From positions 1-35,322 of the forward strand of contig JBAVBF010000589.1 of assembly GCA_049586115.1 (NCBI GenBank): DNA of 35,322 bases, written 5' to 3'. How positions within the stretch are numbered: position 1 is the first letter of the stretch; each line of letters starts with the position of its first letter. The notes under the pieces are model-generated. The model made no database searches and had not been told where the DNA came from. It saw nothing but the letters and a program-made list of their open reading frames with translations. A program made the translations under genes and the position numbers. This DNA is from Thermoanaerobaculia bacterium (lineage in GTDB: Bacteria; Acidobacteriota; Thermoanaerobaculia; Gp7-AA8). This document shows positions 10,206 to 32,326 of this stretch, piece after piece.

Positions 10206-11903
10206 TTGAGAGAGACCTCTGACGTACGAGGTCGATGGCTCCGCTGGCTCGGTGCCGGATTGAACAGCGACGGCGCGCTCTACGTTTTTCTTCTCCTTCT
10301 GGTTTGGGGGCTGACCGTGCCCAAACGCGGCCTGTGGCAGGACGACACCTTGCTGCTGCGCCTCGCGCGCGACTTTCAGGGCCACGGTTTCGTCGCCGCG
10401 TTTACGCCGGTCGTTACTCCGTTGCGGCGGCTCTACTCGCTGCCATGCCGTCTGGCGCTGGCCACGCCGCAGCCCGTCCTGACGATGCACCTGATCTTCG
10501 GCGCGGTTTGGCTCGGGCAGGCGCTGGCAGCCGGCTGGATCTCGCGGCTGCTGATGCCGGGCAGGCGTCTTACGCAGTTTCTGGCGATCTGCCTGACGCT
10601 CACGGCGACCAGCGACTACCTGACCGACAATCTCACCGCGATCGGCTACAACATCAGCGCGTTCATGCTGCTGCTTGCGGTCGGCTGCAGCCTGCGCTAC
10701 ATGCTGGGCGGACGCATCGGTTGGATCGCTCTCGCGTGCGCGGCTACCTCGGTCAGCATCTGGACCATTGACGTCGCCATCCCGGCCCTGCCATTCGTAC
10801 CGCTGATCCTGTTTTGGCGTGGCGGTACCGAGGCCTGGCGGCGAATTTTCCTGGTGCTGTCGGCGCTCGGTCTGACGCTGGCTCACGCTGCCCAGGTCGA
10901 GTGGCGGTTTCTCCACGATCCCGCCAGTTATGCGGCAGTGGCGCTTCTGCCGATGCGCCTCGGGGATCGTCTTCATCGCACGATCGTTTTCTGGGCAGAG
11001 AACTTCACACCGTGGCGCTGGGTCTTCGCCCGCTCCGTCTGGTATCCCCGGCCGCCGGCGGCGATTCCGTGGTGGGCCATGGCGCTCGCTGCGGGAGTTG
11101 CGGCGGCGTGGTTCGCGCTCCGGGCACGCAGGACACAGAATCCGGATCTGCCGGAGCGCACGGCACGCACGCTCGTGCTCGCAGCGATCTTCGCTGCGAT
11201 GGCCCTGATCGCGAATGCCGCATATGCCGGACTGCAGATGGCCGAAATTCACTATCGCACGCACATCCTGTCGCGAACATGGGCATCATTGGCGGTCGCC
11301 GTTTCGGCCGGCTGGGCGGTGCAACAATGGCCTCGCTTCCGGAACCTTGTCCTGCTCGTGCTCGTCCTCTTTGTCGGGTTTGGAGTGTGGGGAGGACTGG
11401 AGCGTCAGGACCTCTGGGTTTCGACCTGGAGGCTGCACAAGAAGGAGCTCCTGTCGATCGTTACCGCGGCCCCCGCCTTGACACCCGGGACGGGGATCAT
11501 CCTTCGCAGCCCGCCCACGCCCGATTTGTATCTCGCGACCGAGGCCGAGTATCTGGCGCAGAGCTGGCTCATCCTGCTCTACGATGACCCTGCCATTCAC
11601 GCTCTGCGCATGACTCCTGATCGAGGGACGGGCTGCCGCGCCACGCCCGAGGGACTCGCGTGCTGGCGCGAGCAACAGGCCGGCTGCGTCGACGCCGGCA
11701 CGTGCGCTCCCGATCGCTTTCCCTACGAAACGCTGGTGATGATGGACTTCGACACGCGGAGAGGAACCTGGCAGTTGGTTTCCACCCCGCGGGGTGATTC
11801 TCTATTGGGCGGATCGGCCGCGGCGCTGGCTGGTTATCGGCCAGCCGGCCGCATCGTGCAACGTCCATTGACGCCGCGGCAGCGCGCCCTCTTGCTCGAG
11901 TAG
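10206..11903 (+). CDS. Polytopic membrane protein, possible GT-C-fold (ArnT/PMT-like) glycosyltransferase
   Basis: TTG start. More than 10 hydrophobic segments, with an acidic DD motif just after the first TM (GLWQDDTLLL) as in GT-C enzymes. Sits directly upstream of a GT2 and a sugar epimerase. The functional call is tentative. Confidence 0.55.
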   Translation: MRETSDVRGRWLRWLGAGLNSDGALYVFLLLLVWGLTVPKRGLWQDDTLLLRLARDFQGHGFVAAFTPVVTPLRRLYSLPCRLALATPQPVLTMHLIFGAVWLGQALAAGWISRLLMPGRRLTQFLAICLTLTATSDYLTDNLTAIGYNISAFMLLLAVGCSLRYMLGGRIGWIALACAATSVSIWTIDVAIPALPFVPLILFWRGGTEAWRRIFLVLSALGLTLAHAAQVEWRFLHDPASYAAVALLPMRLGDRLHRTIVFWAENFTPWRWVFARSVWYPRPPAAIPWWAMALAAGVAAAWFALRARRTQNPDLPERTARTLVLAAIFAAMALIANAAYAGLQMAEIHYRTHILSRTWASLAVAVSAGWAVQQWPRFRNLVLLVLVLFVGFGVWGGLERQDLWVSTWRLHKKELLSIVTAAPALTPGTGIILRSPPTPDLYLATEAEYLAQSWLILLYDDPAIHALRMTPDRGTGCRATPEGLACWREQQAGCVDAGTCAPDRFPYETLVMMDFDTRRGTWQLVSTPRGDSLLGGSAAALAGYRPAGRIVQRPLTPRQRALLLE

Positions 11904-13522: not shown

Positions 13523-13596
13523 GAGCCGCGTGCTAGAATCCGCGGGCCGTTTTAGAGGCTGCTTCTCTTGAAAAAGACGTAGTTGCCTTGATCGGG

Positions 13597-13672
13597 CGAG
13601 CGTAGCTCAGTTGGTAGAGTAGGAGCTTCCCAAGCTTGGTGTCGAGGGTTCGAGTCCCTTCGCCCGCTCCAT
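13597..13672 (+). tRNA. tRNA-Gly, anticodon CCC (13630-13632), CCA encoded
   Basis: Manual cloverleaf fold. D arm is GCTC/AGTTGGTA/GAGT. Anticodon loop is TTCCCAA. T arm is GAGGG/TTCGAGT/CCCTT. The 3' end CGCCCGC-T-CCA matches my recollection of the E. coli glyU 3' end. Two stem mismatches are present (A4:C69, G27:G43). Confidence 0.85.
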
Positions 13673-13834: not shown

Positions 13835-14053
13835 ATGGAGAAACGGATCTCATCGACCGACGCGGCGCGCCTCATTGGGATACGCACGCAGACGCTCGCG
13901 AAGTGGCGTTGGCAGGGCAAGGGCCCAGCCGGTTGGGTGCGCATCTCTCCGACGCACGTCACATATCCGCTCAGCGCGATCGAGAAGTTCATCGCAGAGT
14001 GTGGAGCCGCCGAGGAGCCGAAGGAAAAACGGGGGTGCGGCGATGAACCTTAA
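13835..14053 (+). CDS. Excisionase-family / HTH_17-type DNA-binding protein
   Basis: MEKRISSTDAARLIGIRTQTLAKWRWQGKGP...ISPTHVTYPLSAIEKFI has the typical short Xis/AlpA-like helix-turn-helix. Overlaps the integrase start by 11 nt. Confidence 0.7.
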   Translation: MEKRISSTDAARLIGIRTQTLAKWRWQGKGPAGWVRISPTHVTYPLSAIEKFIAECGAAEEPKEKRGCGDEP

Positions 14054-15224
14054 GGGGCTTCACTACGACGCGCGCCGGAAGCGAGCGGTCCTCGACGGCT
14101 ACACGCGAGATACGGACGGAGAGCGGCGCCGACGGCAGCGAACGATCGAGAACATCACGAAACGCGAGGCCGTCGAGGAGTGGAAGAAGTTCCGCGCCGA
14201 CCTCGAAAGCGGTCGCGCAATCGACGGTCCCGTGACCCTGAAGCAGTTCGTCGATCTGTTCTTCGAGGACATTGGTCAAAACCACCAGGAGAGCACGCGC
14301 GCGACACAGCGAACGCTTCTCGATTGCCAGATCTTGCCGTACTTCGGCAAGACGGTGCTCGAGGAGATTTCGAGCATCCGCGTCGCGAAGTTCATCGCCA
14401 ATATGAAGAAGAACGGTCGCGCTCCGAGCTACATAAACAACGCCGTGCGACTCATCAAGATGCTGCTCCGGCAGGCCGTCGAGCGCGATGTCATTGCCGA
14501 CTATCCCCTCAAAAAGAAGGTGCCGAAAGAGAAAGAGAAGCCGCTCCGGCTGGAACTCACGCGCGATGAACGCGACCGGTTCTTTGCGGTATTTGATGAT
14601 GAAGCAGGATTCCGTCGATACCTCGACGACAAGCGCAAACTTGGCCCTGTCACGCAGAGCGAGAGCTTCAAGAAACCTCGACGCTTTGGCGGCGGACTGC
14701 GAGGCGACAGCAAGGCTGCGGGTATAGCCTTCGCTCGCTTCCAGGAACTTCGCGAGCTGTTCGTTGTCGCCGTGGATACCGGCCTGCGCAAGGGTGACCT
14801 GCGGAACCTCCGATGGAATCAGATCGATTTCGCCGAAGGCTTCATCCGGGTCCTGATGCAGAAGACATCGTTGGAGGCAGAGATCCCGATCTCGGCTGCC
14901 TGTCGCGCGGCGCTCATCGCCATTGAATCGCGATGCGGTCGCGCCGAGTACGTGTTCCGCGACGGAACCGGCAAGCGGTATTCACAGACGAGGATTCGAC
15001 GCACGTTCGTGCTCGCGAAGAAGCTTGCCGGGATCACTCGACGCTTCCGACCTCACGATCTTCGGCACACCTTCGGGTGCCGGCTCGCCAGTAGCTCGGT
15101 CGGGCTGCAGATCATAGCGAAGGCGCTCGGGCATACGACCACGCGCATGGCCGAGCGCTACGCGCGGCCATCGGAGGAAGCGATGCGCATCGTCGTCCGG
15201 GCGCTCGATGCGGATCCGCTCTAG
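14043..15224 (+). CDS. Tyrosine site-specific integrase
   Basis: Catalytic signature present: GLRKGDLRNLRW (Arg I), HDLRHTFGCRLA (H-x-x-R), LGHTTTRMAERYARP (His and Tyr nucleophile). The ATG at 14043 (MNLKGLHYD) is preferred over the long Arg-rich track extension from 13803. Confidence 0.9.
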   Translation: MNLKGLHYDARRKRAVLDGYTRDTDGERRRRQRTIENITKREAVEEWKKFRADLESGRAIDGPVTLKQFVDLFFEDIGQNHQESTRATQRTLLDCQILPYFGKTVLEEISSIRVAKFIANMKKNGRAPSYINNAVRLIKMLLRQAVERDVIADYPLKKKVPKEKEKPLRLELTRDERDRFFAVFDDEAGFRRYLDDKRKLGPVTQSESFKKPRRFGGGLRGDSKAAGIAFARFQELRELFVVAVDTGLRKGDLRNLRWNQIDFAEGFIRVLMQKTSLEAEIPISAACRAALIAIESRCGRAEYVFRDGTGKRYSQTRIRRTFVLAKKLAGITRRFRPHDLRHTFGCRLASSSVGLQIIAKALGHTTTRMAERYARPSEEAMRIVVRALDADPL

Positions 15225-15786: not shown

Positions 15787-16458
15787 ATGGAAGACAGGGA
15801 CGACTGCTGGCCCGAGGATCCAGACGTACTCCACATCGCCCATCGCGCCGATCGGTGTGCGGTTCTCGGGCCCGGCATGCGGGCCGTAATTTGGGTGCAG
15901 GGCTGCAAACTCCGGTGCCCAAGCTGCATCGCACCACAGTCTCTGCCCTTTCACGGCGGATATGTCGTCGGCGTTGATGAGCTGGCCCGAGATCTCGCTG
16001 CGCTTCCGATTGACGGCGTCACCATTTCTGGAGGCGAACCGTTCGAGCAGGCCTTGGCACTCTGCCGCTTGATTCGCTCGACACGCATTCGCAGAGATGT
16101 CTCGTTCCTCTGCTACACCGGATATGAATTCGAGCATCTGCAGCGCCACGGAACTCAAGCCCAACTCGAATTGATCACGGAACTCGATCTGTTGATTGAC
16201 GGCCCGTACGTCGAAGGACAACACGGGGAAGACCTCTGGCGCGGATCGGCGAATCAGCGCATCCATTTCCTGTCGGACCGCCACACGCGAGGAATTCTGG
16301 ATCGTGCCTCAGATGCGTCCCTGATCGAAGCGACGGTAACCTCCGACGGGTCTCTCTTTTGGATGGGCATACCCCCAAAAGGCTTCACGCGAGACTTGCT
16401 ATCACGACTCGCGGCTCAGGGGATTACTTTCGAACATCGAGGAGCCTACGATGAGTGA
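15787..16458 (+). CDS. Radical SAM enzyme of the NrdG/PflA-activase-like (4Fe-4S single-cluster) type
   Basis: GPGMRAVIWVQGCKLRCPSCIAPQ carries CX3CX2C (C40, C44, C47; nt 15904-15927), preceded by the GPGxR...QGC block typical of activases. ISGGEP SAM-binding motif is present. About 220 aa. SD GGAG lies 5 nt upstream. Confidence 0.8.
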   Translation: MEDRDDCWPEDPDVLHIAHRADRCAVLGPGMRAVIWVQGCKLRCPSCIAPQSLPFHGGYVVGVDELARDLAALPIDGVTISGGEPFEQALALCRLIRSTRIRRDVSFLCYTGYEFEHLQRHGTQAQLELITELDLLIDGPYVEGQHGEDLWRGSANQRIHFLSDRHTRGILDRASDASLIEATVTSDGSLFWMGIPPKGFTRDLLSRLAAQGITFEHRGAYDE

Positions 16459-17269
16459 CTCTCCCAAGTGTTCCACACCGAGTCTGAGGGATCAGGAAGA
16501 GCAGCGCCTCCGTGCGGAGCGTGAACGGCTCGCGGCGGAGGAGAACGCACGTCGCCATGCGGAAGCTGAGAGGATCCGACGTGAGCGGATCGAGCAACTC
16601 CGTGTGATCGAGGAGCTTCGAGCAAGGCATCGGGAGGCTCTCGAGAACCTTGCAGACCTCCAGGGAGAGGTTGAGGCGCTCAAGTCGGATGCCGTGACCA
16701 TGCGTTGGAAGCACGACGCTGTGGACGCTCTCGAAACAGCGGTGGCACGTGCAGCGCGGGAGATTGAGGCCGGAGCATTCGATGTGCCGATCTCGAAGCT
16801 TCGATCGATGAAGAAGACCATCCTTGTGATAGTCGCTGAGGCGCAAGAGCGCCAACTTGCCGAGGATCGTCGTCAGTACATCGTCAATGGTCTGGTGACG
16901 GTCTTAGGGCAGATGGGGTTCGTACTCTCTGCGGACAGCCCTCGGCACGGGGATGCGTCGCCATCCTCCGACGTCATGCTCAGTGCACGCAGACTCGGGG
17001 GTGGGGCTGTTGCTGTTTCGATCCCTCTCGAAGGAGAAGTGTTGTACGACGTGGAGGGATACGCGAAGCGCAAGGAGACACACTTCGACGGGGCCGTCAC
17101 GGCAACGTGCGACGAAGCTGAGGCTGAGATCCAGCACGTGCATGACGCGCTAGCTCGGGATTTCGGTATTCAGATGAGCGAGCTCACTTGGGCAGGGAAG
17201 CCGGTTCGAAGCGACAAGCAGGCCGAAGCGCTCCCGCGCGGTGGTAGCCGTGGTCGCGAACGAACGTAG
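16451..17269 (+). CDS. Coiled-coil protein with a C-terminal alpha/beta domain, unknown family
   Basis: The N-terminal 130 aa or so are strongly charged heptad-like sequence (EEQRLRAERERLAAEENARRHAEAERIRRERIEQLRVIEELRARHREALENL). The start overlaps the radical-SAM stop by 8 nt, with GGAG 6 nt upstream. Confidence 0.7.
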   Translation: MSDSPKCSTPSLRDQEEQRLRAERERLAAEENARRHAEAERIRRERIEQLRVIEELRARHREALENLADLQGEVEALKSDAVTMRWKHDAVDALETAVARAAREIEAGAFDVPISKLRSMKKTILVIVAEAQERQLAEDRRQYIVNGLVTVLGQMGFVLSADSPRHGDASPSSDVMLSARRLGGGAVAVSIPLEGEVLYDVEGYAKRKETHFDGAVTATCDEAEAEIQHVHDALARDFGIQMSELTWAGKPVRSDKQAEALPRGGSRGRERT

Positions 17270-17283
17270 TCGGAGATAAACGT

Positions 17284-19131
17284 GTGACTGTTTCTGGTGC
17301 TTGGATTCGCGATCTTGACACCCACCTCTTGCGAGGCAAGCAGGTACTTCTGTACGGGAACGTATTCGATCAACAGTTGATCAACGGACGGTACAACAGG
17401 TTCCGTGAGGCGTTGGAGGCGTACTTCACGGGGGTCGGATACAAGGTGATCGGGCACTACGATCTTGTCGACGGACTCACCCTTCAAACACCGGCGGCAC
17501 GCCAACTCGTCGACGAGATCATGTCCCGCGCCCTCGGCGGTTCGCCAGCGGCGTCTTCCGCGACGAACGTCCAACCCCAACGCTCGATGCCTCGCGCGAC
17601 AGTTGTCGACATGTCCCTGTTCCGCCCCGAACAGGCGCTCGACGTCATCCGACACGTGCTTGCGCAAGCCGAGCACCCGGCGGCGTTCATCGTTGACTTC
17701 TCAGACAAGTTAACGGGCGACCCGGACCGTTTCTCGGAGGATGAGCGGAGATGGCTCGTATTACTTCGAAAAGCGCTGGACTCCGCTGAATTTGTCCGAA
17801 CGGGTGAAGCCAAAGGACGCAGGAATGCCTTGGTGACCGTCGCTGGCCAGCTGGCTGGCGTGCCGGCGTGGTTTTACAAGGAGAATCCCCTTGTTGCGCT
17901 CGTACACGTCGCACAGCCGAGCCGCCACGAGCGGGAGTTCTTCATTCGTCAGTTTTCAAAGCAATTCTACGGAGGCACCGAGCCGAGCGATCTGGCACAA
18001 GAGATCGTCACAGAATTTGCCGACCTCACCGACGGCATGACGGTTTGGGATCTCGAGGGGATACGGCGAGCGTCGCTTCATGAAAAGCTCTCTATTGCAC
18101 GGCCTAAAGCATTGGTCGACTACTACCGATACGGAGCCGTCGAAGACCCGTGGGAACAACTCGACTCTGCCAAGATCCAGTCTGCTGCTAGCGCGATTGC
18201 CGTGGACGTGTTGGGACAGGATGCTGCCGTGGCGGCGGTCATCGACATGCTGGTGGCTGCGCGGGTCGGTCTAACGCTATCTGACTCCTCAGCCAAAGCC
18301 GGAAAGCCGAAAGGGGTGTTCTTCTTCGTTGGGCCTACTGGTGTGGGAAAGACAGAACTGGCCAAGGCCCTCTCGAAACTGGTGTTTGGCGAGCAGGATG
18401 CCCTCGATCGCTATGACATGAGTGAGTATGCAGAGAAGCACGCGGCTGAAAAGCTGGCGGGGTCGCCGCCTGGGTACGTTGGCTACGACGAAGGTGGCAG
18501 GCTAACGAACCGCATGATCAAGAAGCCATTCAGCTTGCTTCTGTTCGATGAGATCGAGAAGGCTGATCCTCTTGTCATGGACAAGTTCCTGCAGATTCTC
18601 GAAGACGGTCGACTCACGGACGCGAAGGGACAGACCGCCTACTTTTCGCAATCGGTGATCATCTTTACGAGCAACATCGGCTCAGACACCGCCATGGACT
18701 GCGTACCGGATGACAGTGGTCACCCGACCTACGAGACGCTTCGTACGCATTACCTAAATGCCGTCCGCCAACACTTCACACACAAGATTGGGCGACCAGA
18801 ACTGCTGAACCGTTTCGGCGACAACATACTTGTGTTTGACATGTTGCGGCCGGCGTACATCGAAGGCATTGCTCACAAGTTTCTGCAGAAGCTCGCCGCT
18901 TCTGCGGCCTTGCGATACGGCATCGCGGTGACATTTGAGCCGTCGGTCCTGGACGCGGTACGGCAGTGGATGCAGGACGGAAGTAACATGCAGTTTGGTG
19001 GGCGTCGAATCAAGACGCTGCTCGATGCCACGATCGTCTTGGCGCTGAATCGCTGGGTTTTTGTGGAGAAGCCAAAGAGGGACACGGCCGTCCGAGTCGC
19101 CTGGAAGAGTGGTTCAGTAGTGATTTCATAA
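17284..19131 (+). CDS. Two-domain AAA+ protein: degenerate classical-AAA-like N-domain + intact ClpA/ClpB D2-type ATPase with D2-small domain
   Basis: The C-terminal half has GQDAAVAAVIDML, Walker A FFFVGPTGVGKTELAKAL, GSPPGYVGYDEGG, Walker B LLLFDEIEKA, sensor-1 IIFTSN and ELLNRF. In the N-terminal half, VLLYGNVFDQ replaces the P-loop and AAFIVDFSD replaces Walker B. GTG start with GGAG 8 nt upstream. Confidence 0.9.
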   Translation: MTVSGAWIRDLDTHLLRGKQVLLYGNVFDQQLINGRYNRFREALEAYFTGVGYKVIGHYDLVDGLTLQTPAARQLVDEIMSRALGGSPAASSATNVQPQRSMPRATVVDMSLFRPEQALDVIRHVLAQAEHPAAFIVDFSDKLTGDPDRFSEDERRWLVLLRKALDSAEFVRTGEAKGRRNALVTVAGQLAGVPAWFYKENPLVALVHVAQPSRHEREFFIRQFSKQFYGGTEPSDLAQEIVTEFADLTDGMTVWDLEGIRRASLHEKLSIARPKALVDYYRYGAVEDPWEQLDSAKIQSAASAIAVDVLGQDAAVAAVIDMLVAARVGLTLSDSSAKAGKPKGVFFFVGPTGVGKTELAKALSKLVFGEQDALDRYDMSEYAEKHAAEKLAGSPPGYVGYDEGGRLTNRMIKKPFSLLLFDEIEKADPLVMDKFLQILEDGRLTDAKGQTAYFSQSVIIFTSNIGSDTAMDCVPDDSGHPTYETLRTHYLNAVRQHFTHKIGRPELLNRFGDNILVFDMLRPAYIEGIAHKFLQKLAASAALRYGIAVTFEPSVLDAVRQWMQDGSNMQFGGRRIKTLLDATIVLALNRWVFVEKPKRDTAVRVAWKSGSVVIS

Positions 19132-19144
19132 CGAGAGGTGAACG

Positions 19145-19894
19145 ATGGCGAGCTTGTACGATTCGATCCGCTCGATGGAAAGGGATGGCAAGATTAGCAA
19201 GGCCACCGCGGATGCCTTCACGGGTACGGCTGACCGTCAGATGCAGATGCCGCCGCTTCATGCGGTCGCTTATGATCCTCAATTCATCTGCGTCCTACTG
19301 GATCAGTCAGGATCCATGAAGCCGTTGCGCGAGGCAGTAATAGAGGGGCATGCCGAGGTTATAAACGCATTCCGCAAGAGCGCCACGTGTAGGAACAACG
19401 CGTTGTTTATCGCGCAGTATGTGTTCAGTGGGACGAGCGAACCGCTCAACGGCTTTCGACCTCTATCGGAGCATGGGAACGATGACGTTGTCCGTCTGAC
19501 GGAATCGAACTACACACCGGCGGGTGTGACAGCTCTCTATCAGACGGTTCATGGAATGCTGCAGGACACGCTCATGGTGGTAGATCACTGCGGCCGCAAC
19601 GAAGGACTCGCGCCGAGCATTTATATCATGCTCGTAACGGATGGCGACGATACGGAGGGCAAAGTCGATCCAGCGGACATTCGCCGTTGTCTCACTGAGA
19701 TGCGTGACAAGGGCACACTTGGTATCGCGGGCGTGCTGGGCGTATTGAGCGACAAGCTGACCCCGCAACAGCTTGAAAACATTAGGGCGACACTCGGATT
19801 TGATGTGGTGATACCCGCGGGCGCGACTGCGAAGGAGCTTCGTGACGCAATGGGTCAGTTCTCTAAAAGCATTGCGGACAGGCTGGGTAAGTAG
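19145..19894 (+). CDS. vWA-domain protein (TerY-like) with a complete MIDAS motif
   Basis: FICVLLDQSGSM (DxSxS), GVTALY (Thr) and IMLVTDGDD (Asp). GAGAGGTG SD upstream of the ATG. Confidence 0.85.
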   Translation: MASLYDSIRSMERDGKISKATADAFTGTADRQMQMPPLHAVAYDPQFICVLLDQSGSMKPLREAVIEGHAEVINAFRKSATCRNNALFIAQYVFSGTSEPLNGFRPLSEHGNDDVVRLTESNYTPAGVTALYQTVHGMLQDTLMVVDHCGRNEGLAPSIYIMLVTDGDDTEGKVDPADIRRCLTEMRDKGTLGIAGVLGVLSDKLTPQQLENIRATLGFDVVIPAGATAKELRDAMGQFSKSIADRLGK

Positions 19895-19922
19895 CGCGCT
19901 CTGTTGGGGAAAGAGGTGGGAT

Positions 19923-21131
19923 GTGCGGTTTGAGTTTGAAGATCGAAGCGGTGAGTACGAGTGCGAGACGCTTTCGAAACTCGGCGAGGGTGGCGAAGGT
20001 GTGATTTATATCTTGGATGACCAGGCGCTTGCGAAGGTCTACCATGCCAAAGAGCTGAATCGACGTCGCCAAGAGAAGGTTCTCGCACTCTGCGCGAGAT
20101 ACAACCATTTCGCCGGTGTGTTCGGAGCGGCGCGTTTCGCGTGGCCGGAGGCGCCGGCGATCTCCGCTGATATTCACGAGATTGTTGGTTTTCGGATGGC
20201 ACATCTCGGAGCCTATCCCAGCCTCGAACAGGTGCGCTACGACTCCTCAGAACGTCAGTTTCGCACGGCTGGTGGCGAGCGGCTAGACGATGACAAAGCG
20301 ATAGCGGTGGCCTATTCGCTCTTCGATGCCCTAGAACGCCTCCATACGGCTCGTATCGTGCTCGGGGACCTAAACCCCACAAATGTGTTGGTGGACATAC
20401 ATTCCGCGAATGCATTGATTGTCGACATCGACTCATGCCACGTTGAGGGGTTCCCGTGCCCTGTATTCAAGGCCGAGTATCTCGATCCAATGACAGAGGC
20501 GGCCGGGAAGCAATCGGACGGGTCTCTGAACTACACCTCGTCCAGTGACTACTATGCAGCAGCAGTTATGACATACGAATTGATCGTCGGGAGCCTGCCC
20601 AGCTTCTTTCGTTCGGAGCAGGGCCTCGGCGCGCTAGACCTGAAGGCGAAAGGCGTGAGCCTTCTGGCCCACGTTGAGGATCCTACGTTCCTTTCCTCGC
20701 ACGGCGTGCGTCTTCGGTCACATCCTTTGAACGACGGACTGTGCCGGCGCTTGCAAGAGGTCAAGTTACTCGACGGAGGACGTCTATACCGATACTGGCA
20801 CGACGTGTTGGTGAAGGGACGGCGGTACAGCCTCCTCGAGCGGCTGCCGGTGTCGGATCCGCGTAATCCGACACACCGGCTGCTTGCCAAGAAGGGGTCA
20901 CGGACCGTTGTCGACGTGATTCGAGATGGACAGTCGCCGCGTGCCGTCGTGCCCTTGCAGGCGGATCCCATTTTTTTTCAGGAGGAGGATGTTCAGACAA
21001 TCGTCGGACTGACACGACGCAGCTCGAGGCTCCGTGCGACGTTCGATGGTGTAGATCCGATTGGATTCCAGCTGTTCGTCGAAAACCTAGGCTTCGACTA
21101 TCGTGCGCTGCTCGAGAGAGGCACAGGATGA
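19923..21131 (+). CDS. Ser/Thr protein-kinase-like protein (TerY-P-type)
   Basis: Gly-rich loop LGEGGEGVIY, Lys in LAKVY, and a catalytic-loop variant IVLGDLNPTNVLV. DIDS occupies the DFG position. GTG 19923 is the first start after the vWA stop, with AAGAGG 6 nt upstream. The track alternative, ATG 19842, overlaps the vWA gene by 53 nt. Confidence 0.75.
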   Translation: MRFEFEDRSGEYECETLSKLGEGGEGVIYILDDQALAKVYHAKELNRRRQEKVLALCARYNHFAGVFGAARFAWPEAPAISADIHEIVGFRMAHLGAYPSLEQVRYDSSERQFRTAGGERLDDDKAIAVAYSLFDALERLHTARIVLGDLNPTNVLVDIHSANALIVDIDSCHVEGFPCPVFKAEYLDPMTEAAGKQSDGSLNYTSSSDYYAAAVMTYELIVGSLPSFFRSEQGLGALDLKAKGVSLLAHVEDPTFLSSHGVRLRSHPLNDGLCRRLQEVKLLDGGRLYRYWHDVLVKGRRYSLLERLPVSDPRNPTHRLLAKKGSRTVVDVIRDGQSPRAVVPLQADPIFFQEEDVQTIVGLTRRSSRLRATFDGVDPIGFQLFVENLGFDYRALLERGTG

Positions 21132-22360
21132 CGGGCTTTGATGAGCGACGCCGTGTTGCGAGCCACTTCGCGCTGTGTCATGACTCTTCGACGGCGCTAC
21201 CGTTCACCGTCGGCGGCGTGACACAGCATGGATGGCACGCGGACTCGCGGAACAATCAAGACGCCATGGGGCTCTGGATTGAACAAGGCTTCATCGTAGC
21301 CGTTGTGTGTGATGGGTGCGCCAGTCCGGCGAGCGCGAGCAAGAATTCCGTGTCGCTCAACGAGGTGGGGGCAAAGCTGACGTGTTTGGCCGCACTACGG
21401 GTTGTGCGTGAGCAGATTCGCATAGGGACGCCTCTGGACGAGTCATTGTCCTTAGCGGTTGTCGAGGGGGTACGGCGGATGGCCCGGCAAGTGGTCGGTA
21501 TCGGACTCCATCGATCCGAGCCAAGAGCGCTTCGCGAGAAGATCTTGCTCGAGTACGTCATGAGTACGTTGCTTCTTGCAGTGGTCACCGCGGAGAACTA
21601 CCTCGTCTTCGCGGTGGGCGATGGATTCATACGTGTGAATGATACCAACCATGATCTGAGCCAAATGAGCGGACACTATCTCGCCAATGAATGGTTTCCC
21701 GCCGCCGAGCGTCGTAGGTCTGCCGTTGAGGTTTCGTCCATCGAACCCGAGGCGGCTGTACCTCCGCGGTGGCTCCAAGTGGGGTCGACCGCAGAGCTCC
21801 ACAGTCTTGTCTTGGCGTCCGACGGAGCAGCTGATCTCTTTTCCAGTCAGAATAACCTCCTCGGTGAACTTCAGAAACGCTCGGCAACGCGTGAGTACTC
21901 GAGCGGATATGACCCTCTGTTTTTTCGGGAGTTTCGCGTGCTCGCGAGCCGGCTGCCTGTGGGGCCGAGGAACCAAGATACCGATGATCAGACGCTCGTG
22001 GCGATTCGACGGTTGCCGCAATCTGAGAAGGGCGATCTCGCTGAAAAGGAGCAACAAGGCAGCGCGACAACGGAAATGCTTGCCGCTCCCACCATCGAGC
22101 GCTTTCCCGCGGTCGAACAACTGCCCGCTGGCGAAGCCCTTCCCAACGTCGAAGCGCTTCCCAACGTTGATCCTGTTTCCACCTTAGAGCCTCTTCGCAG
22201 CGTCGAGTGCATTCCGGCCGCCGAATCTGTTCCCGACTCCGAACCTGTTCCCGGCGCCGAAGTCGTCCTCAATGAACTAATAGAGATATCTGAAGCCGGG
22301 GTTGAAAAGGACAAACCAACCGATCGCGAGGTACCTGATGCTGACAGTGTCGGCGAGTGA
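21128..22360 (+). CDS. PP2C-family protein phosphatase with a hexapeptide-repeat acidic tail
   Basis: Metal-binding blocks NQDAMG, VVCDGC, FAVGDGF, LASDGAADL and DDQTLVAI. ATGA overlap with the kinase stop. Confidence 0.8.
   Translation: MTGFDERRRVASHFALCHDSSTALPFTVGGVTQHGWHADSRNNQDAMGLWIEQGFIVAVVCDGCASPASASKNSVSLNEVGAKLTCLAALRVVREQIRIGTPLDESLSLAVVEGVRRMARQVVGIGLHRSEPRALREKILLEYVMSTLLLAVVTAENYLVFAVGDGFIRVNDTNHDLSQMSGHYLANEWFPAAERRRSAVEVSSIEPEAAVPPRWLQVGSTAELHSLVLASDGAADLFSSQNNLLGELQKRSATREYSSGYDPLFFREFRVLASRLPVGPRNQDTDDQTLVAIRRLPQSEKGDLAEKEQQGSATTEMLAAPTIERFPAVEQLPAGEALPNVEALPNVDPVSTLEPLRSVECIPAAESVPDSEPVPGAEVVLNELIEISEAGVEKDKPTDREVPDADSVGE
22097..22258 (+). repeat. Nine tandem 18-nt (hexapeptide) repeats inside the PP2C tail
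   Basis: In-frame units ERFPAV EQLPAG EALPNV EALPNV DPVSTL EPLRSV ECIPAA ESVPDS EPVPGA. The DNA units are clearly related (gaagcccttcccaacgtc / gaagcgcttcccaacgtt ...). Confidence 0.8.
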
Positions 22361-23882
22361 CATTTCGAACGCGGGCGGACTATTGGCGGCAATCTCTGCG
22401 AAGTCAGCTGACTTTGTGGCTGAGCTGCTATCGGGAACCCGGACTCGCCTTCCGGCAGCCGCGGCTCGAGTCACGAAGCTCGTGACACATGCCAACCCGC
22501 ACCTGGACGAGTACTTCGCGGCACTAGTGTTCCGAGCGCTGTTGCCGTCTTCGAAGCGTGGCCTCGTGCTTGGAGAGGCCGTCCTGGGATCGCGAGACAA
22601 CGATTCGCTTGCACAATCGACGTGGCCGGACGCGGCCGTATTCGGCATCGGCGCGACTGAGAACGGGGGCGCACGGCCACTAATCTTGTACGACGAGCAC
22701 ACGCATACTGGTGTCAAGCGAAAGGCCTCATCCTGCTCGGAACTGACGTTGAAGCGCGTCGTGGAGGGCTTCCCCCATGCATTGCCGCCGGAACTCTTCT
22801 TTGTATTCGGCGAGATAGATCACATCGACGCGAATGGCGGCGCTCACCCGCAGCAGCTGGCTAACGCCGTCAAGTGGCTCCATGACATCAGTTTTATGGT
22901 GCACGCAGGCGCAACACCCGCCGAGAGGATCTCAGAGCAGTTGTCGTTTATCTGGAAACAGGCCCTTGTGGATGCGGCTGTCGTTGCTGCTTTGTACGTC
23001 CTTCGGGAGCGGATCGACCTCAAGAAGCGGGACGCGTGGAAGGACTATGCCGGTGACTCGCTTCGACACTACAAAGAGCACACCCTGCTAAGGGAGCGCC
23101 CTCAGTTCGAGGCGTGCTATCAACGGCTGACGCAGAACGTCCTTGGATTCCCGGGTCGTGGTCCCGTATGGTTGACAACACGTGGCGCCGATGGCGTTTT
23201 GGTGCCCAGGCTCGATTCGCATAAACGGGAAATACCTCAACGACTCGTCATGCCTTGGCTTAGCCGCGCATGTGTGGAGTGCTGGGGGCCGCAACTGGGT
23301 CATGTCATTCTCGCCCATTTCTGGGAGGCGACGTTGATGAACCAGCTGTCGTTCGTTCGAATTAAGGATGAACTGACGACAGTTCTTGGAGAAGGTCGAG
23401 TGGATGTGGATGTCGACACACCCGTTGGGGAGCTTCAGTTTCGAACTCTCTCGGGCATCGCCGTGAAGCCCGCTGGATCAGCCGACGGAAACTCAACGGT
23501 GCAGCCGTGGGTATTGTTCTACCGTCCACGAATTGACATAGAGGCACCGAAGCCACCCATCTCCAACTTCATAGCAAGCAAGAATCAGGGTGTTGGCATC
23601 TTCGCGATTGTTAACCCACGGTCGGATACATTGGTGCTTTCGCGCGGAGGCGGTGTCTCAGATTCCGTTTGGGAAGCTGTAATCGGCCAGCTCGTTGAGC
23701 GCGAAGGTGACTCGGACGCGAAGGACGTCCCTGGGTGCTGGCATATCACTCGGGATGAGAAGGGCAAGCCGGCAGATTTTCTGCTGAACGGGAACAAGGC
23801 TCACCAGTATGTTCCTAGGTCGGCGCTTCGGGATGTGAACAGTCTGACCCACCTCGTAAAGGCCGCGTACAGACCAACGTGA
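22338..23882 (+). CDS. Large protein of uncertain family; N-terminus resembles MYG1/UPF0160 (DHH-superfamily) metal-dependent phosphoesterases
   Basis: KLVTHANPHLDEYFAALVFRALLP and FGIGATENGGARPLILYDEHTHTG resemble, from memory, the MYG1 blocks GTHxGxFHxDE and DVGGxYD...YDHHQ. ATG 22338 has GAGG 6 nt upstream and overlaps the PP2C gene by 23 nt. The CDS call is solid; the family call is tentative. Confidence 0.55.
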   Translation: MLTVSASDISNAGGLLAAISAKSADFVAELLSGTRTRLPAAAARVTKLVTHANPHLDEYFAALVFRALLPSSKRGLVLGEAVLGSRDNDSLAQSTWPDAAVFGIGATENGGARPLILYDEHTHTGVKRKASSCSELTLKRVVEGFPHALPPELFFVFGEIDHIDANGGAHPQQLANAVKWLHDISFMVHAGATPAERISEQLSFIWKQALVDAAVVAALYVLRERIDLKKRDAWKDYAGDSLRHYKEHTLLRERPQFEACYQRLTQNVLGFPGRGPVWLTTRGADGVLVPRLDSHKREIPQRLVMPWLSRACVECWGPQLGHVILAHFWEATLMNQLSFVRIKDELTTVLGEGRVDVDVDTPVGELQFRTLSGIAVKPAGSADGNSTVQPWVLFYRPRIDIEAPKPPISNFIASKNQGVGIFAIVNPRSDTLVLSRGGGVSDSVWEAVIGQLVEREGDSDAKDVPGCWHITRDEKGKPADFLLNGNKAHQYVPRSALRDVNSLTHLVKAAYRPT

Positions 23883-25486: not shown

Positions 25487-26431
25487 TCACTCGACCACGA
25501 CCATTGGCGGGCGCACGGAACCCTCGAGCTGCGTGCGGCGAACGACGCTGCGAACCAGCGCTTCATCACAGCCAATGACGAACCGCTCGCAGCGTGAGGC
25601 CATCGCGAGATTATTCTCGCGGACCTGTCCCTTGGTGAGTGGCAGGAAGTCGAGGCCCGTCCCGAGGTCGCCGATGAAAAGAGCGACGGAGCGGCTCAGG
25701 GGAATCATCTTGTGTGCACCTGGAGTCGCGAGACCGAAGCCTCGCATTCCGTGCTGCCAGTCACGCGGCGGAATCAGCAGCAGAGGAGCGTCCGTGAGGA
25801 TCAGCGACATGCGGGCTGGCGTCTCCGCCACGACCCAACGCATGTTGAGGAAGATCTCCGCGAGGTCACCACTCATCTGGATCATCGTCTTGATAATGTT
25901 CTGCCGGGGTTCGACGACGGTATATCCGCCGTCTCTCAGGAGTTCGAAGTCCTCCTCCGGTGTCACGTCCATCGTGGTGCCGGTCCGCGCCTCGAATTTT
26001 TCGTGCTGGATTCGTACATCGTCGACAGTCGTTGCCATCCGCCGCCCGAGCGCTTGAAACGCTCCATTCATCATCTCCCGCATCGCGCGGTCGAATTGCG
26101 GGACACGGGTATGCAGCAGCGCGCAGAACAGAGCCAGCACTTCGCGGTCATGATCCGTCGGTGCTTCGCGGCGCTCCAACTTACGGATCACCGGCTCGGC
26201 TTCACCCTCAATAGATGACAGGAAGGCCTCGACCTCCATCGACTTCTCGCCGGTCACCGCATCGTCGATGGCGTAGTAGTAGCGGCTGACGGCTGTGTTC
26301 TTCGGCGTCTGGGGACGAAACGCATTGCTGTCGCGATCGAAGACGGTGAACACGGAATCGCGCTGCCTGTCCGAAGTGAAGCCTGCAAGGTAGAACTCAG
26401 GCAGGTAGTGGTGCCGCTTCGGGGTAGTCAT
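25487..26431 (-). CDS. DUF4238-family protein
   Basis: The N-terminus MTTPKRHHYLPEFYLAGF matches the H-Y-(V/L)-P-x-F-Y-L-x-x-F hallmark I associate with DUF4238. About 314 aa from ATG 26431. The track ORF extension to 26656 is Arg/Gly-rich and implausible. Confidence 0.7.
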   Translation of the reverse strand: MTTPKRHHYLPEFYLAGFTSDRQRDSVFTVFDRDSNAFRPQTPKNTAVSRYYYAIDDAVTGEKSMEVEAFLSSIEGEAEPVIRKLERREAPTDHDREVLALFCALLHTRVPQFDRAMREMMNGAFQALGRRMATTVDDVRIQHEKFEARTGTTMDVTPEEDFELLRDGGYTVVEPRQNIIKTMIQMSGDLAEIFLNMRWVVAETPARMSLILTDAPLLLIPPRDWQHGMRGFGLATPGAHKMIPLSRSVALFIGDLGTGLDFLPLTKGQVRENNLAMASRCERFVIGCDEALVRSVVRRTQLEGSVRPPMVVVE

Positions 26432-26475
26432 TGCGGTCTCAAACAATCCGGCGTCGCGTGAGCATTTCGAGCAGC

Positions 26476-27021
26476 CTAGCCCACGTGTGAGGCAATGTAC
26501 GCTGCGACCGGTGCGGATCGGTCGACGCCCGCGCTGCAGTGTAGGAGCACCGGTTTCGGCAACTCTTTGAACGCCGCGAGCGCAACTTCGCGGACGGTCA
26601 ACAGCTTCTCCTCGATGGTGTCCCGTGACGACTTGCTGTGCTGGGGGTCTTCCCACGGGAGGTGCTGAATCTGAAACCGCGTCCGGTAGAACTCGATCAG
26701 GTTGTCCGTTCCGAGTTCCAGGTCCTTGTAGAACCCGACCTCGGTGTCACTCATCAGGCAAATGATGCTCTGTATGCCGCACACCTGAATCATGTCCGCC
26801 CACTCCGCGACGTAAGGAGCCGCATCGGGCGTCAAGGTCCGCGCACTCCCACCGAATCGTTTGTGGTAACGGAGCGGACGCTGCGAACATGCGAGCTGGC
26901 CGGGGATGATCCAAACGATGAGTTCGGACTCATCTCCGTCCTGCAGCCTCCGGCGAAGAGTTGCGAGCTCCCGCCGAATCGAAGCGGTGCGCTGGACGAT
27001 GTCGGCAGGCATGGTAGTCAT
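26476..27021 (-). CDS. Cys-based protein phosphatase (dual-specificity / PTP-like)
   Basis: HCSAGVDRS is the HCX5R(S/T) P-loop. A candidate general-acid Asp (LPWEDP) lies about 37 aa upstream. IIPGQLACSQRP is typical of DSP N-termini. Start taken at MTTMPADIV. Confidence 0.8.
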   Translation of the reverse strand: MTTMPADIVQRTASIRRELATLRRRLQDGDESELIVWIIPGQLACSQRPLRYHKRFGGSARTLTPDAAPYVAEWADMIQVCGIQSIICLMSDTEVGFYKDLELGTDNLIEFYRTRFQIQHLPWEDPQHSKSSRDTIEEKLLTVREVALAAFKELPKPVLLHCSAGVDRSAPVAAYIASHVG

Positions 27022-27350
27022 TGTCGCAAGCAGACGAACAACCGCGAAACACGGGTGATGAATGGAACGAGCCGCCGTACGACTTCTGAGCGAGGACGAG
27101 ACCGCCCGGTTGGTTGAGGCATGCACGAGCGATGAAGTCCTCGAAGTGAGCAGCATGGCGCATCGGGTCTGACCTCTCGCGACGTGTCGCCGCCGAAGGC
27201 GACGAAGTCCTCAGCGAGACCTTCCGGTTCATCTCAGGAGTCCTTGCTCCGAGGGTCGAAGCGATTCTGAAGATCGAGACTGCGGCGAACACCTTCTGGG
27301 TCGAGCCGTCGACGCTGACGGAGACTGAGCGTGAGCTTCTGCGGCAGCTT

Positions 27351-28832
27351 GTGGCGACGGCTGCTGACCCCGAGATAAAGGCGCGGTTCGCCGACTTCCT
27401 GTGGCTCGCAGCGCGCGATTGGAAATCCGGAGAGATCGCGGTCGACTCCTATCTGGAGTCGGCGCGCCGTCTAAGGGACCCGGAAAACTGGGCGGGCGCC
27501 GCACCGCGATATGAGCGTGCCGCGTCCCTTGCCGGCTCCCTCGGTCGCAAGAAGCAGCGCTACTTGGCGGTGATCGCTGAGATCGAGGCATACCTCACGG
27601 AACTCGATGCGACGGACCCGCTCTTCATGAGCTGTCGGCTCATGGAGATTCTGCTCGCGCAGAAGGAGGGCAATCGCGCGAAGTACGCGGCGCTCGCGGA
27701 GAAAGCGGCGCACGCGGCCGAGGCCCGCGGTAATTTCTATGTGGCGCAGTTCCACTGGGACCTCGCGGCGAAATGGCAGTCTGCCCTGGAGAATACTGAT
27801 GGCGTTCGCGCTGCGCGGATTGGTGCGGCCGAGACGCTCGTGAAGGAAGCCGAGAGCAAGACGGAAGGCGCCAATGCAAGCTTCCTTACGGCAGCGAGCG
27901 TGCTGCAGGGTGCGATAGCGATCCTGCAAAAACAGAGCGGCACGCAGGACCGTGTTAAAGAACTGTTCCGCCTCCTCAAGGAGTACGAGATCAAAGGCGT
28001 GAAGGAGCTCAAGCCGATCGGAGGCACGGTTGATCTGACCGATGTGGCGGAGTTGGCGCGACAGGAGGTTGCCGGCATATCACGTCCAGATGCGATATCC
28101 GGGATCGCAGCGATGGTCCGTTTCCCACGGCGCGAGAAGGTGAAAGCCGATGTGCGAAAGGCGGCGAAGGACGATCCCCTTCAGCACCTCTTCGGTGAGT
28201 CGCTCCTCGACGCAGATGGCGCGATCATCGCCGGCCGGGGATCGGTCGATCCGGAAGACGAAGGCGAGGACCGTTCCGTGCTCGCGCGGATGTATGAAGA
28301 TGTCGTCCGCACCTTCAGCTTCACGGCGCTCGGCCAGATAGACCCGGCGCGACGCCAAATCGTCGACGAACATGACATCCGCGAGGGTGACCTGTCCGTC
28401 ATTGTGCAGCGCAGCTGGTTCGTGCCGCCGGGGCGCGACCCACTCTTCTCGCGCGGCCTGCTCGCGGGCTTCGAAGGCGATTTCGCCGTCGCACTGCACC
28501 TGCTCACGCCACAGATTGAGGCAGCACTGCGATGGAATCTGCGCCGACGTGGCCATGTCACGACGCGACTGAATCGGGACGGATTCCAGGAAGAGATGGA
28601 CCTCAACCAGTTGCTTGCAGATGCTCCCGCCGGTGAGCTTCTGGGCGATGACTTGCGCTTCGCGTTGCAGGCACTCCTCACGAGCCGCTTCGGGTTCAAT
28701 CTGCGGAACAAGCTCGCGCATGGTTTGCTGGATATCGGCGCCATGTATTCGACGGTCGCGGAGTTCTTCTGGGCGGTCGTGCTCATGATCTGCGTGCGCA
28801 CAACGGTCACGGCTGAGCATCCATCGACGTAG
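27351..28832 (+). CDS. DUF4209-like protein with a C-terminal HEPN-type Rx4H motif
   Basis: The C-terminal FGFNLRNKLAHG contains the LRN motif I associate with DUF4209 and an Rx4H (RNKLAH). The N-terminal part is a long helical region. GTG 27351 is the first canonical start, although the frame is open from 27150. Confidence 0.7.
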   Translation: MATAADPEIKARFADFLWLAARDWKSGEIAVDSYLESARRLRDPENWAGAAPRYERAASLAGSLGRKKQRYLAVIAEIEAYLTELDATDPLFMSCRLMEILLAQKEGNRAKYAALAEKAAHAAEARGNFYVAQFHWDLAAKWQSALENTDGVRAARIGAAETLVKEAESKTEGANASFLTAASVLQGAIAILQKQSGTQDRVKELFRLLKEYEIKGVKELKPIGGTVDLTDVAELARQEVAGISRPDAISGIAAMVRFPRREKVKADVRKAAKDDPLQHLFGESLLDADGAIIAGRGSVDPEDEGEDRSVLARMYEDVVRTFSFTALGQIDPARRQIVDEHDIREGDLSVIVQRSWFVPPGRDPLFSRGLLAGFEGDFAVALHLLTPQIEAALRWNLRRRGHVTTRLNRDGFQEEMDLNQLLADAPAGELLGDDLRFALQALLTSRFGFNLRNKLAHGLLDIGAMYSTVAEFFWAVVLMICVRTTVTAEHPST

Positions 28833-31963: not shown

Positions 31964-32326
31964 ATGATCATCACCCTCTGCTTCGCCTTGGGCTGCTTTC
32001 TCGTAGTGGTCTCGCTGCCACTCGGCTCAGCGGGCGTCTCTGTTAGGCGTGTGGGAGCGTGTCTCATTCTGGGTCCGCTGGTCGCGTCCGTCCTGTGGGG
32101 AACGCTGAAGGTCGCGCTACAGGAGGGCGATGTGCGTGTGGGCCTGAGCGCCACCGTTGGCGTGATTGTCTTGAGCTTCGTGGCATATGCGGTTCTGAAG
32201 GTGCGGAAGCGCATGTCCTCCTCAGGCGGACAAGGAAAACGTATCGCGACCAAGCGACCGTACATCCACCAGCGCGGGCGCGACGTGATGACGTTCATTA
32301 AGGAACAGCTGAATCGCGATGAATAG
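31964..32326 (+). CDS. Small membrane protein (about 3 TM)
   Basis: MIITLCFALGCFLVVVSLPL, ACLILGPLVASVLWGTL and ATVGVIVLSFVAYAVL, followed by a basic tail. GAGGA SD. Overlaps the ATPase start by 8 nt. Confidence 0.65.
   Translation: MIITLCFALGCFLVVVSLPLGSAGVSVRRVGACLILGPLVASVLWGTLKVALQEGDVRVGLSATVGVIVLSFVAYAVLKVRKRMSSSGGQGKRIATKRPYIHQRGRDVMTFIKEQLNRDE

Follow-up and report, generated by a model that had tools for sequence, protein, structure and literature searches.

What do three tightly packed genes, encoding a radical S-adenosylmethionine (SAM) enzyme, a coiled-coil protein, and an AAA+ ATPase, do together in the genome of an acidobacterium, and are they a unit at all? The genes, which we call the trio, lie in a 35,322-nucleotide (nt) stretch of DNA from a Thermoanaerobaculia bacterium (assembly GCA_049586115.1, contig JBAVBF010000589.1, positions 1 to 35,322), referred to below as the window. 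An earlier note on this DNA had proposed that the trio might be a separable module and the genuinely new unit of the locus. That proposal is supported by the linkage of the three genes in 50 loci, by the exchange of the genes around them, and by the lack of a description: no account of the trio was found in the literature searched (the original TerY-P paper was outside it), in PADLOC, or in the PDB. We consider it fairly likely that the trio acts as one functional unit in biological conflict. We also lean, somewhat less firmly, toward the reading that it is the conserved core of a mobile, undescribed conflict-system module, most likely directed against phages or plasmids.

Coupling of the three genes in the window

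The three open reading frames (ORFs) are present at the coordinates named earlier (15787-16458, 223 amino acids [aa]; 16451-17269, 272 aa; and 17284-19131, 615 aa), and the overlap and gap reported between them are borne out as well. The stop codon of the radical-SAM gene (TGA, 16456-16458) overlaps the ATG of the coiled-coil gene (16451) by 8 nt (ATGAGTGA), and AGGAG lies 6 nt 5' of that ATG. The coiled-coil gene ends with TAG at 17267-17269 and is followed by a 14-nt gap that contains GGAG and leads to the GTG start of the AAA+ gene at 17284.

The earlier note took this spacing to mark the trio as a block of its own, which it does not. The fourth gene, at 19145, begins only 13 nt past the AAA+ stop codon and has its own ribosome-binding site (GAGAGG); farther on, the kinase and PP2C phosphatase genes overlap by 4 nt, and an ORF of 526 aa overlaps the end of the PP2C gene. 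Given the 13-nt gap and the kinase/PP2C overlap, the spacing marks one equally coupled block of seven genes.

The trio in other genomes

Loci were gathered independently with the coiled-coil family, the N-terminal domain of the AAA+ protein, and the radical-SAM enzyme as starting points, and the contigs of individual homologues were added. The six-frame ORFs of these loci, with up to 10 kb of flank on each side, were scanned with our own hidden Markov models (HMMs) made from Pfam-checked seeds. All three genes were found within one fetched locus in 50 nonredundant loci from about a dozen phyla. The hosts are Cyanobacteria, Planctomycetes, Actinobacteria (many of them Streptomyces, Kribbella, and Nocardia), Armatimonadota, Abditibacteriota, UBP7, Riflebacteria, Zixibacteria, Lentisphaerae, Spirochaetes, Acidobacteriota, and one archaeon of the Methanobacteriota. 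Singulisphaera and Oscillatoria PCC 10802 have two copies per genome. Junctions typically range from -8 to +3 nt between the radical-SAM and coiled-coil genes and from -7 to +14 nt between the coiled-coil and AAA+ genes. In three loci (L102, L105, and L107) the order is permuted to coiled-coil, AAA+, radical SAM, and the linkage is kept. The association is far beyond chance, and the trio is neither peculiar to this genome nor a random assortment of genes elsewhere, outcomes that the earlier note had named as telling against it.

The trio families also occur on plasmids: pGM01 of Geminocystis, an NDM-1 plasmid of Acinetobacter, conjugative plasmids of Moellerella, and pPNAP02 of Polaromonas. 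On the proteobacterial plasmids the HMM E values for the three families were 1e-13 to 1e-16, 1e-28 to 1e-40, and 1e-38 to 1e-46, and the RefSeq names of the plasmid trio are "4Fe-4S single cluster domain-containing protein," "hypothetical protein," and "AAA family ATPase." The Acinetobacter (NDM-1), Moellerella, and Polaromonas versions would be the more tractable for experiments. No relatives of the coiled-coil protein or of the AAA+ N-terminal domain were found among the IMG/VR viral contigs, and a DNA-level search found no copy in E. coli.

These loci bear directly on whether the three genes work together. Two independent pairs might instead stand side by side: a radical-SAM enzyme with its coiled-coil substrate, and an AAA+ chaperone that works with vWA, FHA, and kinase proteins, as MoxR does with vWA proteins. 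The AAA+ gene of the window is indeed coupled to gene 4 as tightly as to the coiled-coil gene, and in many genomes (L019, L028, L030, L052, L058, L065, and L066) the AAA+ stop and the vWA start overlap by 8 nt. Two loci (L064 and L065) have a divergent AAA+ gene with kinase, vWA, and FHA genes and no radical-SAM or coiled-coil gene within 10 kb, and relatives of the radical-SAM/coiled-coil pair are found with Hsp70. However, the coiled-coil and AAA+ genes mostly overlap or lie within 14 nt of each other, and in the 22 AAA+ loci with ample flanks (at least 8 kb upstream and 7 kb downstream) a coiled-coil gene was present in 19, as was a kinase gene, compared with 16 for radical SAM and 15 for vWA. 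The three genes also stay linked when their order is permuted and when they are joined to helicase/PIN, GTPase, or TIR sets that lack vWA, and the pairless AAA+ copies (in Trichodesmium, and the second copy in Oscillatoria PCC 10802) are the most divergent, with 28-31% identity in the N-terminal domain. We consider two independent pairs unlikely and prefer a single unit of three genes. Its parts are modular and not strictly obligate partners, as the AAA+ genes without the pair and the Hsp70-associated relatives of the pair show.

The Hsp70 association was seen in two Pyrinomonadaceae loci (L109, 5883-10627; L146, 6299-10672), where a related radical-SAM gene is preceded by kinase and Hsp70-like genes (Pfam HSP70, 2e-23, in L109) and by one whose product is rich in coiled coil. 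Upstream are a member of the coiled-coil family with the N terminus MSG.K..Y and a large tandem AAA+ protein. This is a sister architecture, with Hsp70 beside the radical-SAM enzyme.

Exchange of partner genes

The trio is conserved elsewhere without vWA, kinase, and PP2C genes, as the earlier note had suggested it might be. No kinase, PP2C, vWA, or FHA gene was detected in 8 of the 50 complete loci, nor, besides these, in the helicase-type operons of the proteobacterial plasmids; a kinase alone was detected in 16, and 31 had no vWA match, but absence here means that none was detected, and divergent partners such as the small vWA-like protein of the window would be missed. The kinase is the commonest neighbor.

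Partner sets differ among host groups. The layout in cyanobacteria, UBP7, Armatimonadota, and Abditibacteriaceae is [kinase]-rSAM-CC-AAA-VWA-FHA-(PP2C)-(kinase), where rSAM is the radical-SAM gene and CC the coiled-coil gene; the kinases of this type often bear FGE-sulfatase or GUN4 domains. Planctomycetes have rSAM-CC-AAA-kinase and then an integrase. Actinobacteria have (PP2C)-kinase-rSAM-CC-AAA, downstream of which are Hsp70 and GAP1-N2 in some cases and DO-GTPase and GAP1 in others. TPR and TIR proteins are the partners in one soil contig.

In a Zixibacterium, the archaeon, and the proteobacterial plasmids, the order is CC-AAA-rSAM, downstream of an SF1 helicase of about 1,300 aa, and all genes of these helicase-type operons overlap by about 4 nt. 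The plasmid operon of Acinetobacter, Moellerella, and Polaromonas has five genes, with a PIN protein between the helicase and the trio, which forms the 3' half; the archaeon has a 916-aa protein without a Pfam match where the PIN protein sits on the plasmids. The Acinetobacter helicase matches MkoA (6e-96) and its PIN neighbor weakly matches MkoB (1e-5). The Moellerella and Polaromonas operons are annotated like that of Acinetobacter; in L105 and L107 it is Pfam alone that identifies the helicase at this position as SF1 (AAA_11/AAA_12).

Other genes lie among or beside these sets. A reverse transcriptase gene (RVT_1) adjoins a kinase-FGE-sulfatase gene that neighbors the trio in one locus (L005, 288-3252) and was also seen in another (L022, 7307-8041); the pair looks like a diversity-generating retroelement (DGR) that diversifies the sensor kinase. 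Some cyanobacterial clusters contain inserted toxin-antitoxin pairs (L230, 8238-8943, on Geminocystis pGM01; L001, 3703-4729 and 6958-7802), of the types HigB plus regulator, PhdYeFM plus DUF3368, and MNT/HepT. On the Acinetobacter plasmid pNDM1_010055 (L231, 9712-11694), the five-gene operon is directly followed by genes for a small VakA/PDC-M51B-like ATPase and another radical-SAM protein, weakly similar to prokaryotic viperin (pVip), a pair that is a candidate for another defense system on the NDM-1 plasmid.

The radical-SAM enzyme

The first gene (15787-16458, forward strand) encodes a 223-aa radical-SAM enzyme of the NrdG family (Fer4_12, 2.4e-30). Its best NCBIfam match was NrdG (TIGR02491, 1.1e-28) with 100.1 bits against a cutoff of 126.1, and all other activase models in NCBIfam were far below their own cutoffs. 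The nearest solved relative by sequence is the pyruvate formate-lyase (PFL)-activating enzyme (9e-14). The enzyme looks catalytically active, having kept the cluster motif CX3CX2C (C40-x3-C44-x2-C47, nt 15904-15927), GGEP (SGGEP, 16027-16041), and WRGSxNQR (WRGSANQR, 16237-16260). An alignment of 14 orthologues showed VWVQGC-x3-C-x2-C, SGGEP, and DG.Y...H..LWRGS.NQR to be conserved, with most positions invariant. A C-terminal extension of about 55 aa past the NrdG core is conserved in the same 14 orthologues.

One ordinary account of this enzyme is that it is an anaerobic activase of the NrdG/PflA type that serves a glycyl-radical enzyme encoded elsewhere and that its neighbors are unrelated island cargo. 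The best family matches, NrdG and the PFL activase, agree with this, as does the likeness to those enzymes in the minimal radical-SAM core, CX3CX2C, GGEP, and the NrdG-type DG.[YF]...WRGSxNQ; the class Thermoanaerobaculia also includes anaerobes. Yet the enzyme differs from NrdG and PflA in scoring below the family cutoff (100 versus 126 bits), in bearing the conserved extension, which NrdG does not have, and in its neighbors. It has no NrdD- or PFL-type substrate nearby; the genes linked to it encode a coiled-coil protein and an AAA+ ATPase, with radical-SAM and coiled-coil genes overlapping in dozens of genomes, including those of aerobes and cyanobacteria; trio enzymes are thus found in aerobes and oxygenic phototrophs. 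A regular-expression scan for the glycyl-radical motif RVxG[FWY] found none in the real ORFs of the window, and a plausible NrdD-like neighbor was present in just 1 of 80 radical-SAM loci (L129). Conserved linkage largely refutes the ordinary activase, which we regard as very improbable. NrdG and PflA activases do act on a protein partner, which suggests that the enzyme of the trio does too.

Three other matches to the motif were set aside. The only one in the window, in an 88-aa six-frame ORF (11215-11481), was judged spurious, and the two in radical-SAM loci were in a kinase ORF and in a minus-strand ORF that is likely spurious.

Relatives of the radical-SAM enzyme directly adjoin a single-ring AAA+ protein of about 520 aa (Walker A GIPGTGKS or GVPGCGKS) in six loci (L117, L118, L130, L139, L106, and L121). 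This suggests a wider theme of radical SAM plus AAA+ beyond the trio.

The coiled-coil protein

The second gene (16451-17269, forward strand) encodes a 272-aa protein that founds a new family. The earlier note had allowed that this ORF might have no homologues, but when 1.84 billion representatives were searched exhaustively with a profile, 622 relatives passed E<=1e-3, of which 205 also passed E<=1e-30, and the ORF stands as a real gene. Word-indexed searches had returned 14 close homologues in one case and 3 and 5 in others; the exhaustive search exposed the apparent rarity as an index artifact, and the rarity reading was dropped. Most members of the family are about 430 aa long, so the window protein is a short-coil variant; coil length varies across the family alignment.

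In the AlphaFold2 model (mean pLDDT of 80), three long helices (residues 12-154) are followed by a small domain of beta sheet plus helix (157-238). This C-terminal alpha/beta domain, at about aa 155-250 (nt 16913-17200), is rich in invariant positions (G156, G195, Y199, C220, E222, H231, FG, and W247); modeled separately, it had a pLDDT of 67. The best Foldseek match, the N-terminal domain of spermine synthase (probability of 0.97, TM score of 0.43), was not relied on, and the low-complexity coiled-coil matches that were all a PDB sequence-profile search with the family returned were likewise rejected.

The family alignment begins with MSDSPKY or MSGSPKY, which in the window is MSDSPKC (16451-16471). 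The pattern MS.[ST]PK fits a Ser/Thr-Pro phosphoacceptor; it is missing in the helicase-type operons. In some members (L058, L099, and L112) a hydrophobic N terminus replaces SPK (MSGGIELIPLLL, MSGGMEGLVVLG, and MSGLVVGFFVIG), and these may be membrane-associated variants. Two UBP7 metagenome-assembled genomes (L049 and L050, 7423-9983) have tandem paralogues of 426 and 427 aa between the radical-SAM and AAA+ genes.

The AAA+ protein

The third gene encodes two AAA+-type rings, only one of which looks active. Its C-terminal part (18184-19131, forward strand; AAA_2, 1.3e-46) is a ClpB-D2-type motor. Walker A (GPTGVGKT, 18331-18354), Walker B (LLLFDE, 18535-18552), the pore loop (GYVGY, 18472-18486), and sensor 1 (IIFTSN) are intact, and GRPELLNR and GGRRIK are candidate Arg-finger and sensor-2 motifs. 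The ClpB, ClpV, and ClpA models match only residues ~295-613, through their second ring; the match to ClpB (TIGR03346, 2.9e-72) covers model positions 560-851 only, at 244 bits against a cutoff of 1232.

The N-terminal 300 aa (17284-18183, forward strand) match neither Clp_N nor any other Pfam domain. They contain no GxxxxGK[ST], the sole Walker A being at residue 350; LLYGNVFD (17347-17370) stands in place of Walker A, and FIVDFSDKL (17686-17712) is at the Walker B position. These motifs are kept in the orthologues as AAA+-like remnants (LLYGN..D, VVDxxDKL, and RN.LV.VA). The profile of the domain weakly matches the VAT D1 lid (E = 0.035), and an iterated HMM picks up canonical AAA+ proteins with GPPGTGKT; this drifted iteration was used only for AAA+ ancestry, never for locus counts. 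We read the region as a degenerate first ring with no ATPase activity. We had considered an active first ring in the large proteins with GNPGTGKT, but their alignment showed an N-terminal domain without Walker A, and the idea was dropped.

The second ring, with its GYVGY pore loop, resembles those of ClpB/Hsp104 and ClpV. Unlike ClpB/Hsp104, the protein has no Clp_N and no M-domain, and its first ring has no Walker A. The tripeptide [LIV]G[FL] docks ClpP; the only such match in the window protein is VGL at residue 328, in the D1-D2 linker.

A proposed role in conflict

We favor a conflict role for the trio because its partners include TIR and PIN proteins, a Mokosh-like helicase, DO-GTPase/GAP1-N2, and DGR-type FGE-kinases and because it is found in islands and on plasmids. 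We regard it as a probable new component of microbial immunity. TerY-P-like switches, DO-GTPase/GAP1 genes, Mokosh-like pairs, and TIR proteins have been treated as separate classes; that the trio joins them all suggests that it supplies a common regulatory step.

In the mechanism that we propose, the partner set would sense the invader; in the window, the kinase would be the sensor and PP2C the reset. The kinase possibly phosphorylates the Ser/Thr-Pro site at the conserved N terminus of the coiled-coil protein. The AAA+ hexamer would engage and remodel the coiled-coil protein, a chaperone-type threshold step modeled on the proposal of Kaur et al. for the MoxR-vWA and DO-GTPase systems (PMC7159879). 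The radical-SAM enzyme would act on the C-terminal domain of its translationally coupled partner, a step suggested by its nearest relatives, which abstract hydrogen from a protein glycine. The modified complex would then arrest the cell or license an attached effector. That the coiled-coil protein is the substrate of the enzyme is a tentative idea. The fuller version, in which the enzyme installs a radical, a radical-derived modification, or a cleavage on the C-terminal domain, which the unfoldase presents or resets in a switch that arms immune effectors, is rather doubtful.

Several observations weigh against this reading or parts of it. The trio core has no obvious toxin. Neither the radical-SAM enzyme nor the coiled-coil protein matched any PADLOC model, and the latter had no match in Pfam or NCBIfam; Foldseek found nothing in the PDB below E = 0.1, either for the full coiled-coil model or for its C-terminal domain. 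The motif RVxG[FWY] was not found in the coiled-coil family, whose C-terminal domain is small for a classical glycyl radical, and a stable one is hard to reconcile with the many aerobic or oxygenic hosts. The N-terminal motif MS.[ST]PK is commoner in kinase/PP2C loci (38 versus 9 with the motif and 10 versus 13 without it; Fisher P = 0.0025), but this association is confounded by phylogeny and truncated contigs. The pairless AAA+ loci L064 and L065, the Pyrinomonadaceae loci in which Hsp70 stands in place of the AAA+ protein beside relatives of the radical-SAM enzyme and of the coiled-coil C-terminal domain, and the partners that our models would miss belong here too.

The same genes could serve a purpose other than immunity, for example, as a phosphorylation-controlled device for proteostasis or cell architecture in which the AAA+ protein regulates the assembly or disassembly of a coiled-coil filament. 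ClpV of type VI secretion operates beside a kinase/PP2C/FHA switch, and the set of kinase, PP2C, FHA, vWA, and Clp-type ATPase resembles the type VI pathway of threonine phosphorylation, in which PpkA/PppA/Fha1 would be the parallel switch and ClpV the parallel ATPase. Filamentous cyanobacteria, Planctomycetes, Actinobacteria, and Chthonomonadaceae make up many of the hosts, the coil varies in length, and no toxin is evident in the core. Such a device is at odds, however, with the patchy spread of the module on islands and plasmids, including NDM-1 and conjugative plasmids, with the adjacent integrases, and with its presence in unicellular hosts and an archaeon. TIR, PIN, the Mokosh-like helicase, and a DGR-diversified sensor kinase as partners point to conflict instead. 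We think a nonimmune device of this kind quite improbable.

If the trio is a functional unit in conflict, it is a widespread and so far unnamed building block that is added to prokaryotic conflict systems. If the proposed switch is real, a radical-SAM "activase" would introduce a biochemical principle new to immunity, unlike the nucleotide chemistry of viperin, common to bacteria and archaea, and borne on resistance plasmids.

Partner genes and genomic island in the window

The partner module of the window begins with gene 4 (19145-19894, forward strand), whose 249-aa product has the motifs DQSGS (19301-19315) and TDGDD (19637-19651). It had no match in Pfam, PADLOC, NCBIfam, or the PDB, and BLAST gave no vWA support; since none of these searches confirmed it, we call it vWA-like by motif. 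It is dissimilar in sequence to the VWA protein of about 410 aa in the cyanobacterial-type systems. Gene 5 (19842-21131, forward strand; start uncertain, with GTG 19923 as an alternative) encodes an atypical Ser/Thr kinase (Pkinase, 1.5e-9) with the catalytic loop GDLNPTN and PADLOC matches to PD-T4-6 (1.5e-9) and mad6 (8.6e-7). Gene 6 (21128-22360, forward strand) encodes the PP2C phosphatase (PP2C_2, 1.8e-17). Its C-terminal third is a low-complexity tail of imperfect repeats rich in Pro, Glu, and Val (…PAVEQLPAGEALPNVEALPNVDPVS…) with no domain match. Gene 7, the last of the block (22302-23882, forward strand; start uncertain, with ATG 22338 possible), encodes a 526-aa protein with no family match. 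One other locus (L149) has a homologue of gene 4 followed by the same kinase and PP2C genes and by a gene of about 512 aa in the post-PP2C position of gene 7.

A tRNA-Gly (CCC) gene (13596-13671, forward strand; ARAGORN) lies upstream of the operon, with a tyrosine integrase gene directly 3' of it (14040-15224, forward strand; the ORF extends back to 13803, and which start is used is uncertain; Phage_integrase, 5.3e-30; Phage_int_SAM_3, 7.7e-10). This tRNA gene is likely where the system-bearing island integrated; a direct repeat of its 3' end was sought downstream within the window and not found. Integrases also flank related loci (L008, L010-L012, and L149). A symporter encoded in the flank of the window block shares 99% identity with its counterpart in a Thermoanaerobaculia (Acidobacteriota) metagenome-assembled genome, in keeping with the host. 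Downstream of the operon are genes for a DUF4238 protein (25487-26656, reverse strand; Pfam, 2.1e-39; PADLOC DUF4238-Pers, 1.3e-7), a weakly Tyr/dual-specificity phosphatase-like ORF (26476-27156, reverse strand), a DUF7380/DUF4209 protein (27351-28832, forward strand) that matches the PADLOC candidate PDC-S39 (2.5e-139), and a HerA/mad8-like ATPase (32319-33905, forward strand). These downstream genes indicate a defense island, and on this predicted gene content the window copy of the trio sits in a tRNA-Gly/integrase defense island.

Comparison with known defense and conflict systems

The trio module falls outside every kind of system that we checked and is apparently undescribed. The earlier note had pointed to the ClpB-like DolB protein of Dodola as a defense precedent for the AAA+ protein. 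The core does match DolB (1.6e-19, model positions 121-284 of 375) and also PDC-M37B (2.6e-31) in PADLOC, but the precedent is a generic one: both matches are limited to the ATPase core of about 130-180 residues, and no other window protein matched the Dodola models or component A of PDC-M37.

The TerY-P triad consists of the vWA protein TerY, a PP2C phosphatase, and a Ser/Thr kinase (Anantharaman et al. 2012 and Gao et al. 2020, as summarized in PMC11090510), and it attaches optionally to other systems, such as CoCoNuT (PMC11090510). Genes 4 to 6 of the window, of which the kinase and PP2C are confirmed by Pfam, may share this architecture and look like an optional add-on; as the earlier note had said, no member of the trio belongs to the triad. 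The set differs from TerY-P in that its vWA protein is known by MIDAS-like motifs only (DxSxS and TDG), genes 4 to 6 have no PADLOC match named for TerY-P, Pfam detects neither a zinc ribbon nor an OB fold in the kinase, and a fourth gene of about 520 aa is attached.

Close parallels in organization are the chaperone-based "ternary" systems that Kaur, Burroughs, Iyer, and Aravind described in biological conflict (2020; PMC7159879). The MoxR-vWA systems join a MoxR-clade AAA+ protein to a vWA co-chaperone and add VMAP, iSTAND, or FtsH as a third constant component; the DO-GTPase/GAP1-N2 systems come with Hsp70 or kinase-PP2C-vWA themes. The trio resembles them in having a constant NTPase/chaperone core with variable sensors and effectors, in its enrichment in multicellular prokaryotes, and in adjoining DO-GTPase, GAP1-N2, Hsp70, TerD, FGE-kinase, and GUN4-kinase genes. 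The DO-GTPase/GAP1 genes are beside the trio in actinobacterial and planctomycete loci but absent from the window. The trio ATPase is of the Clp type, however, and not MoxR; AAA_5 is only a weak secondary match (3.1e-7). The text of that paper mentions radical SAM once, for FtsH systems, and does not mention the radical-SAM, coiled-coil, and AAA+ proteins of the trio. No model named for VMAP, iSTAND, or FtsH was seen among our Pfam matches.

Mokosh is an Upf1-like COG1112 helicase plus a PLD nuclease (Millman et al. 2022, preprint). On the proteobacterial plasmids an MkoA-like helicase and a nuclease-type protein precede the trio in the same way, but that nuclease is PIN and not PLD, three translationally coupled trio genes are added, and the window has no helicase.

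The radical-SAM enzymes already known in defense, the viperins and Ophion (2025 preprint), have proposed chemistry on nucleotides or nucleic acids. The Acinetobacter orthologue of the trio enzyme is only a weak pVip match in PADLOC (2.5e-7), and the window enzyme has none. If our reading is right, the trio, in which an activase-type enzyme has a protein partner of its own and an unfoldase, would work by a chemistry unlike that of viperins and Ophion.

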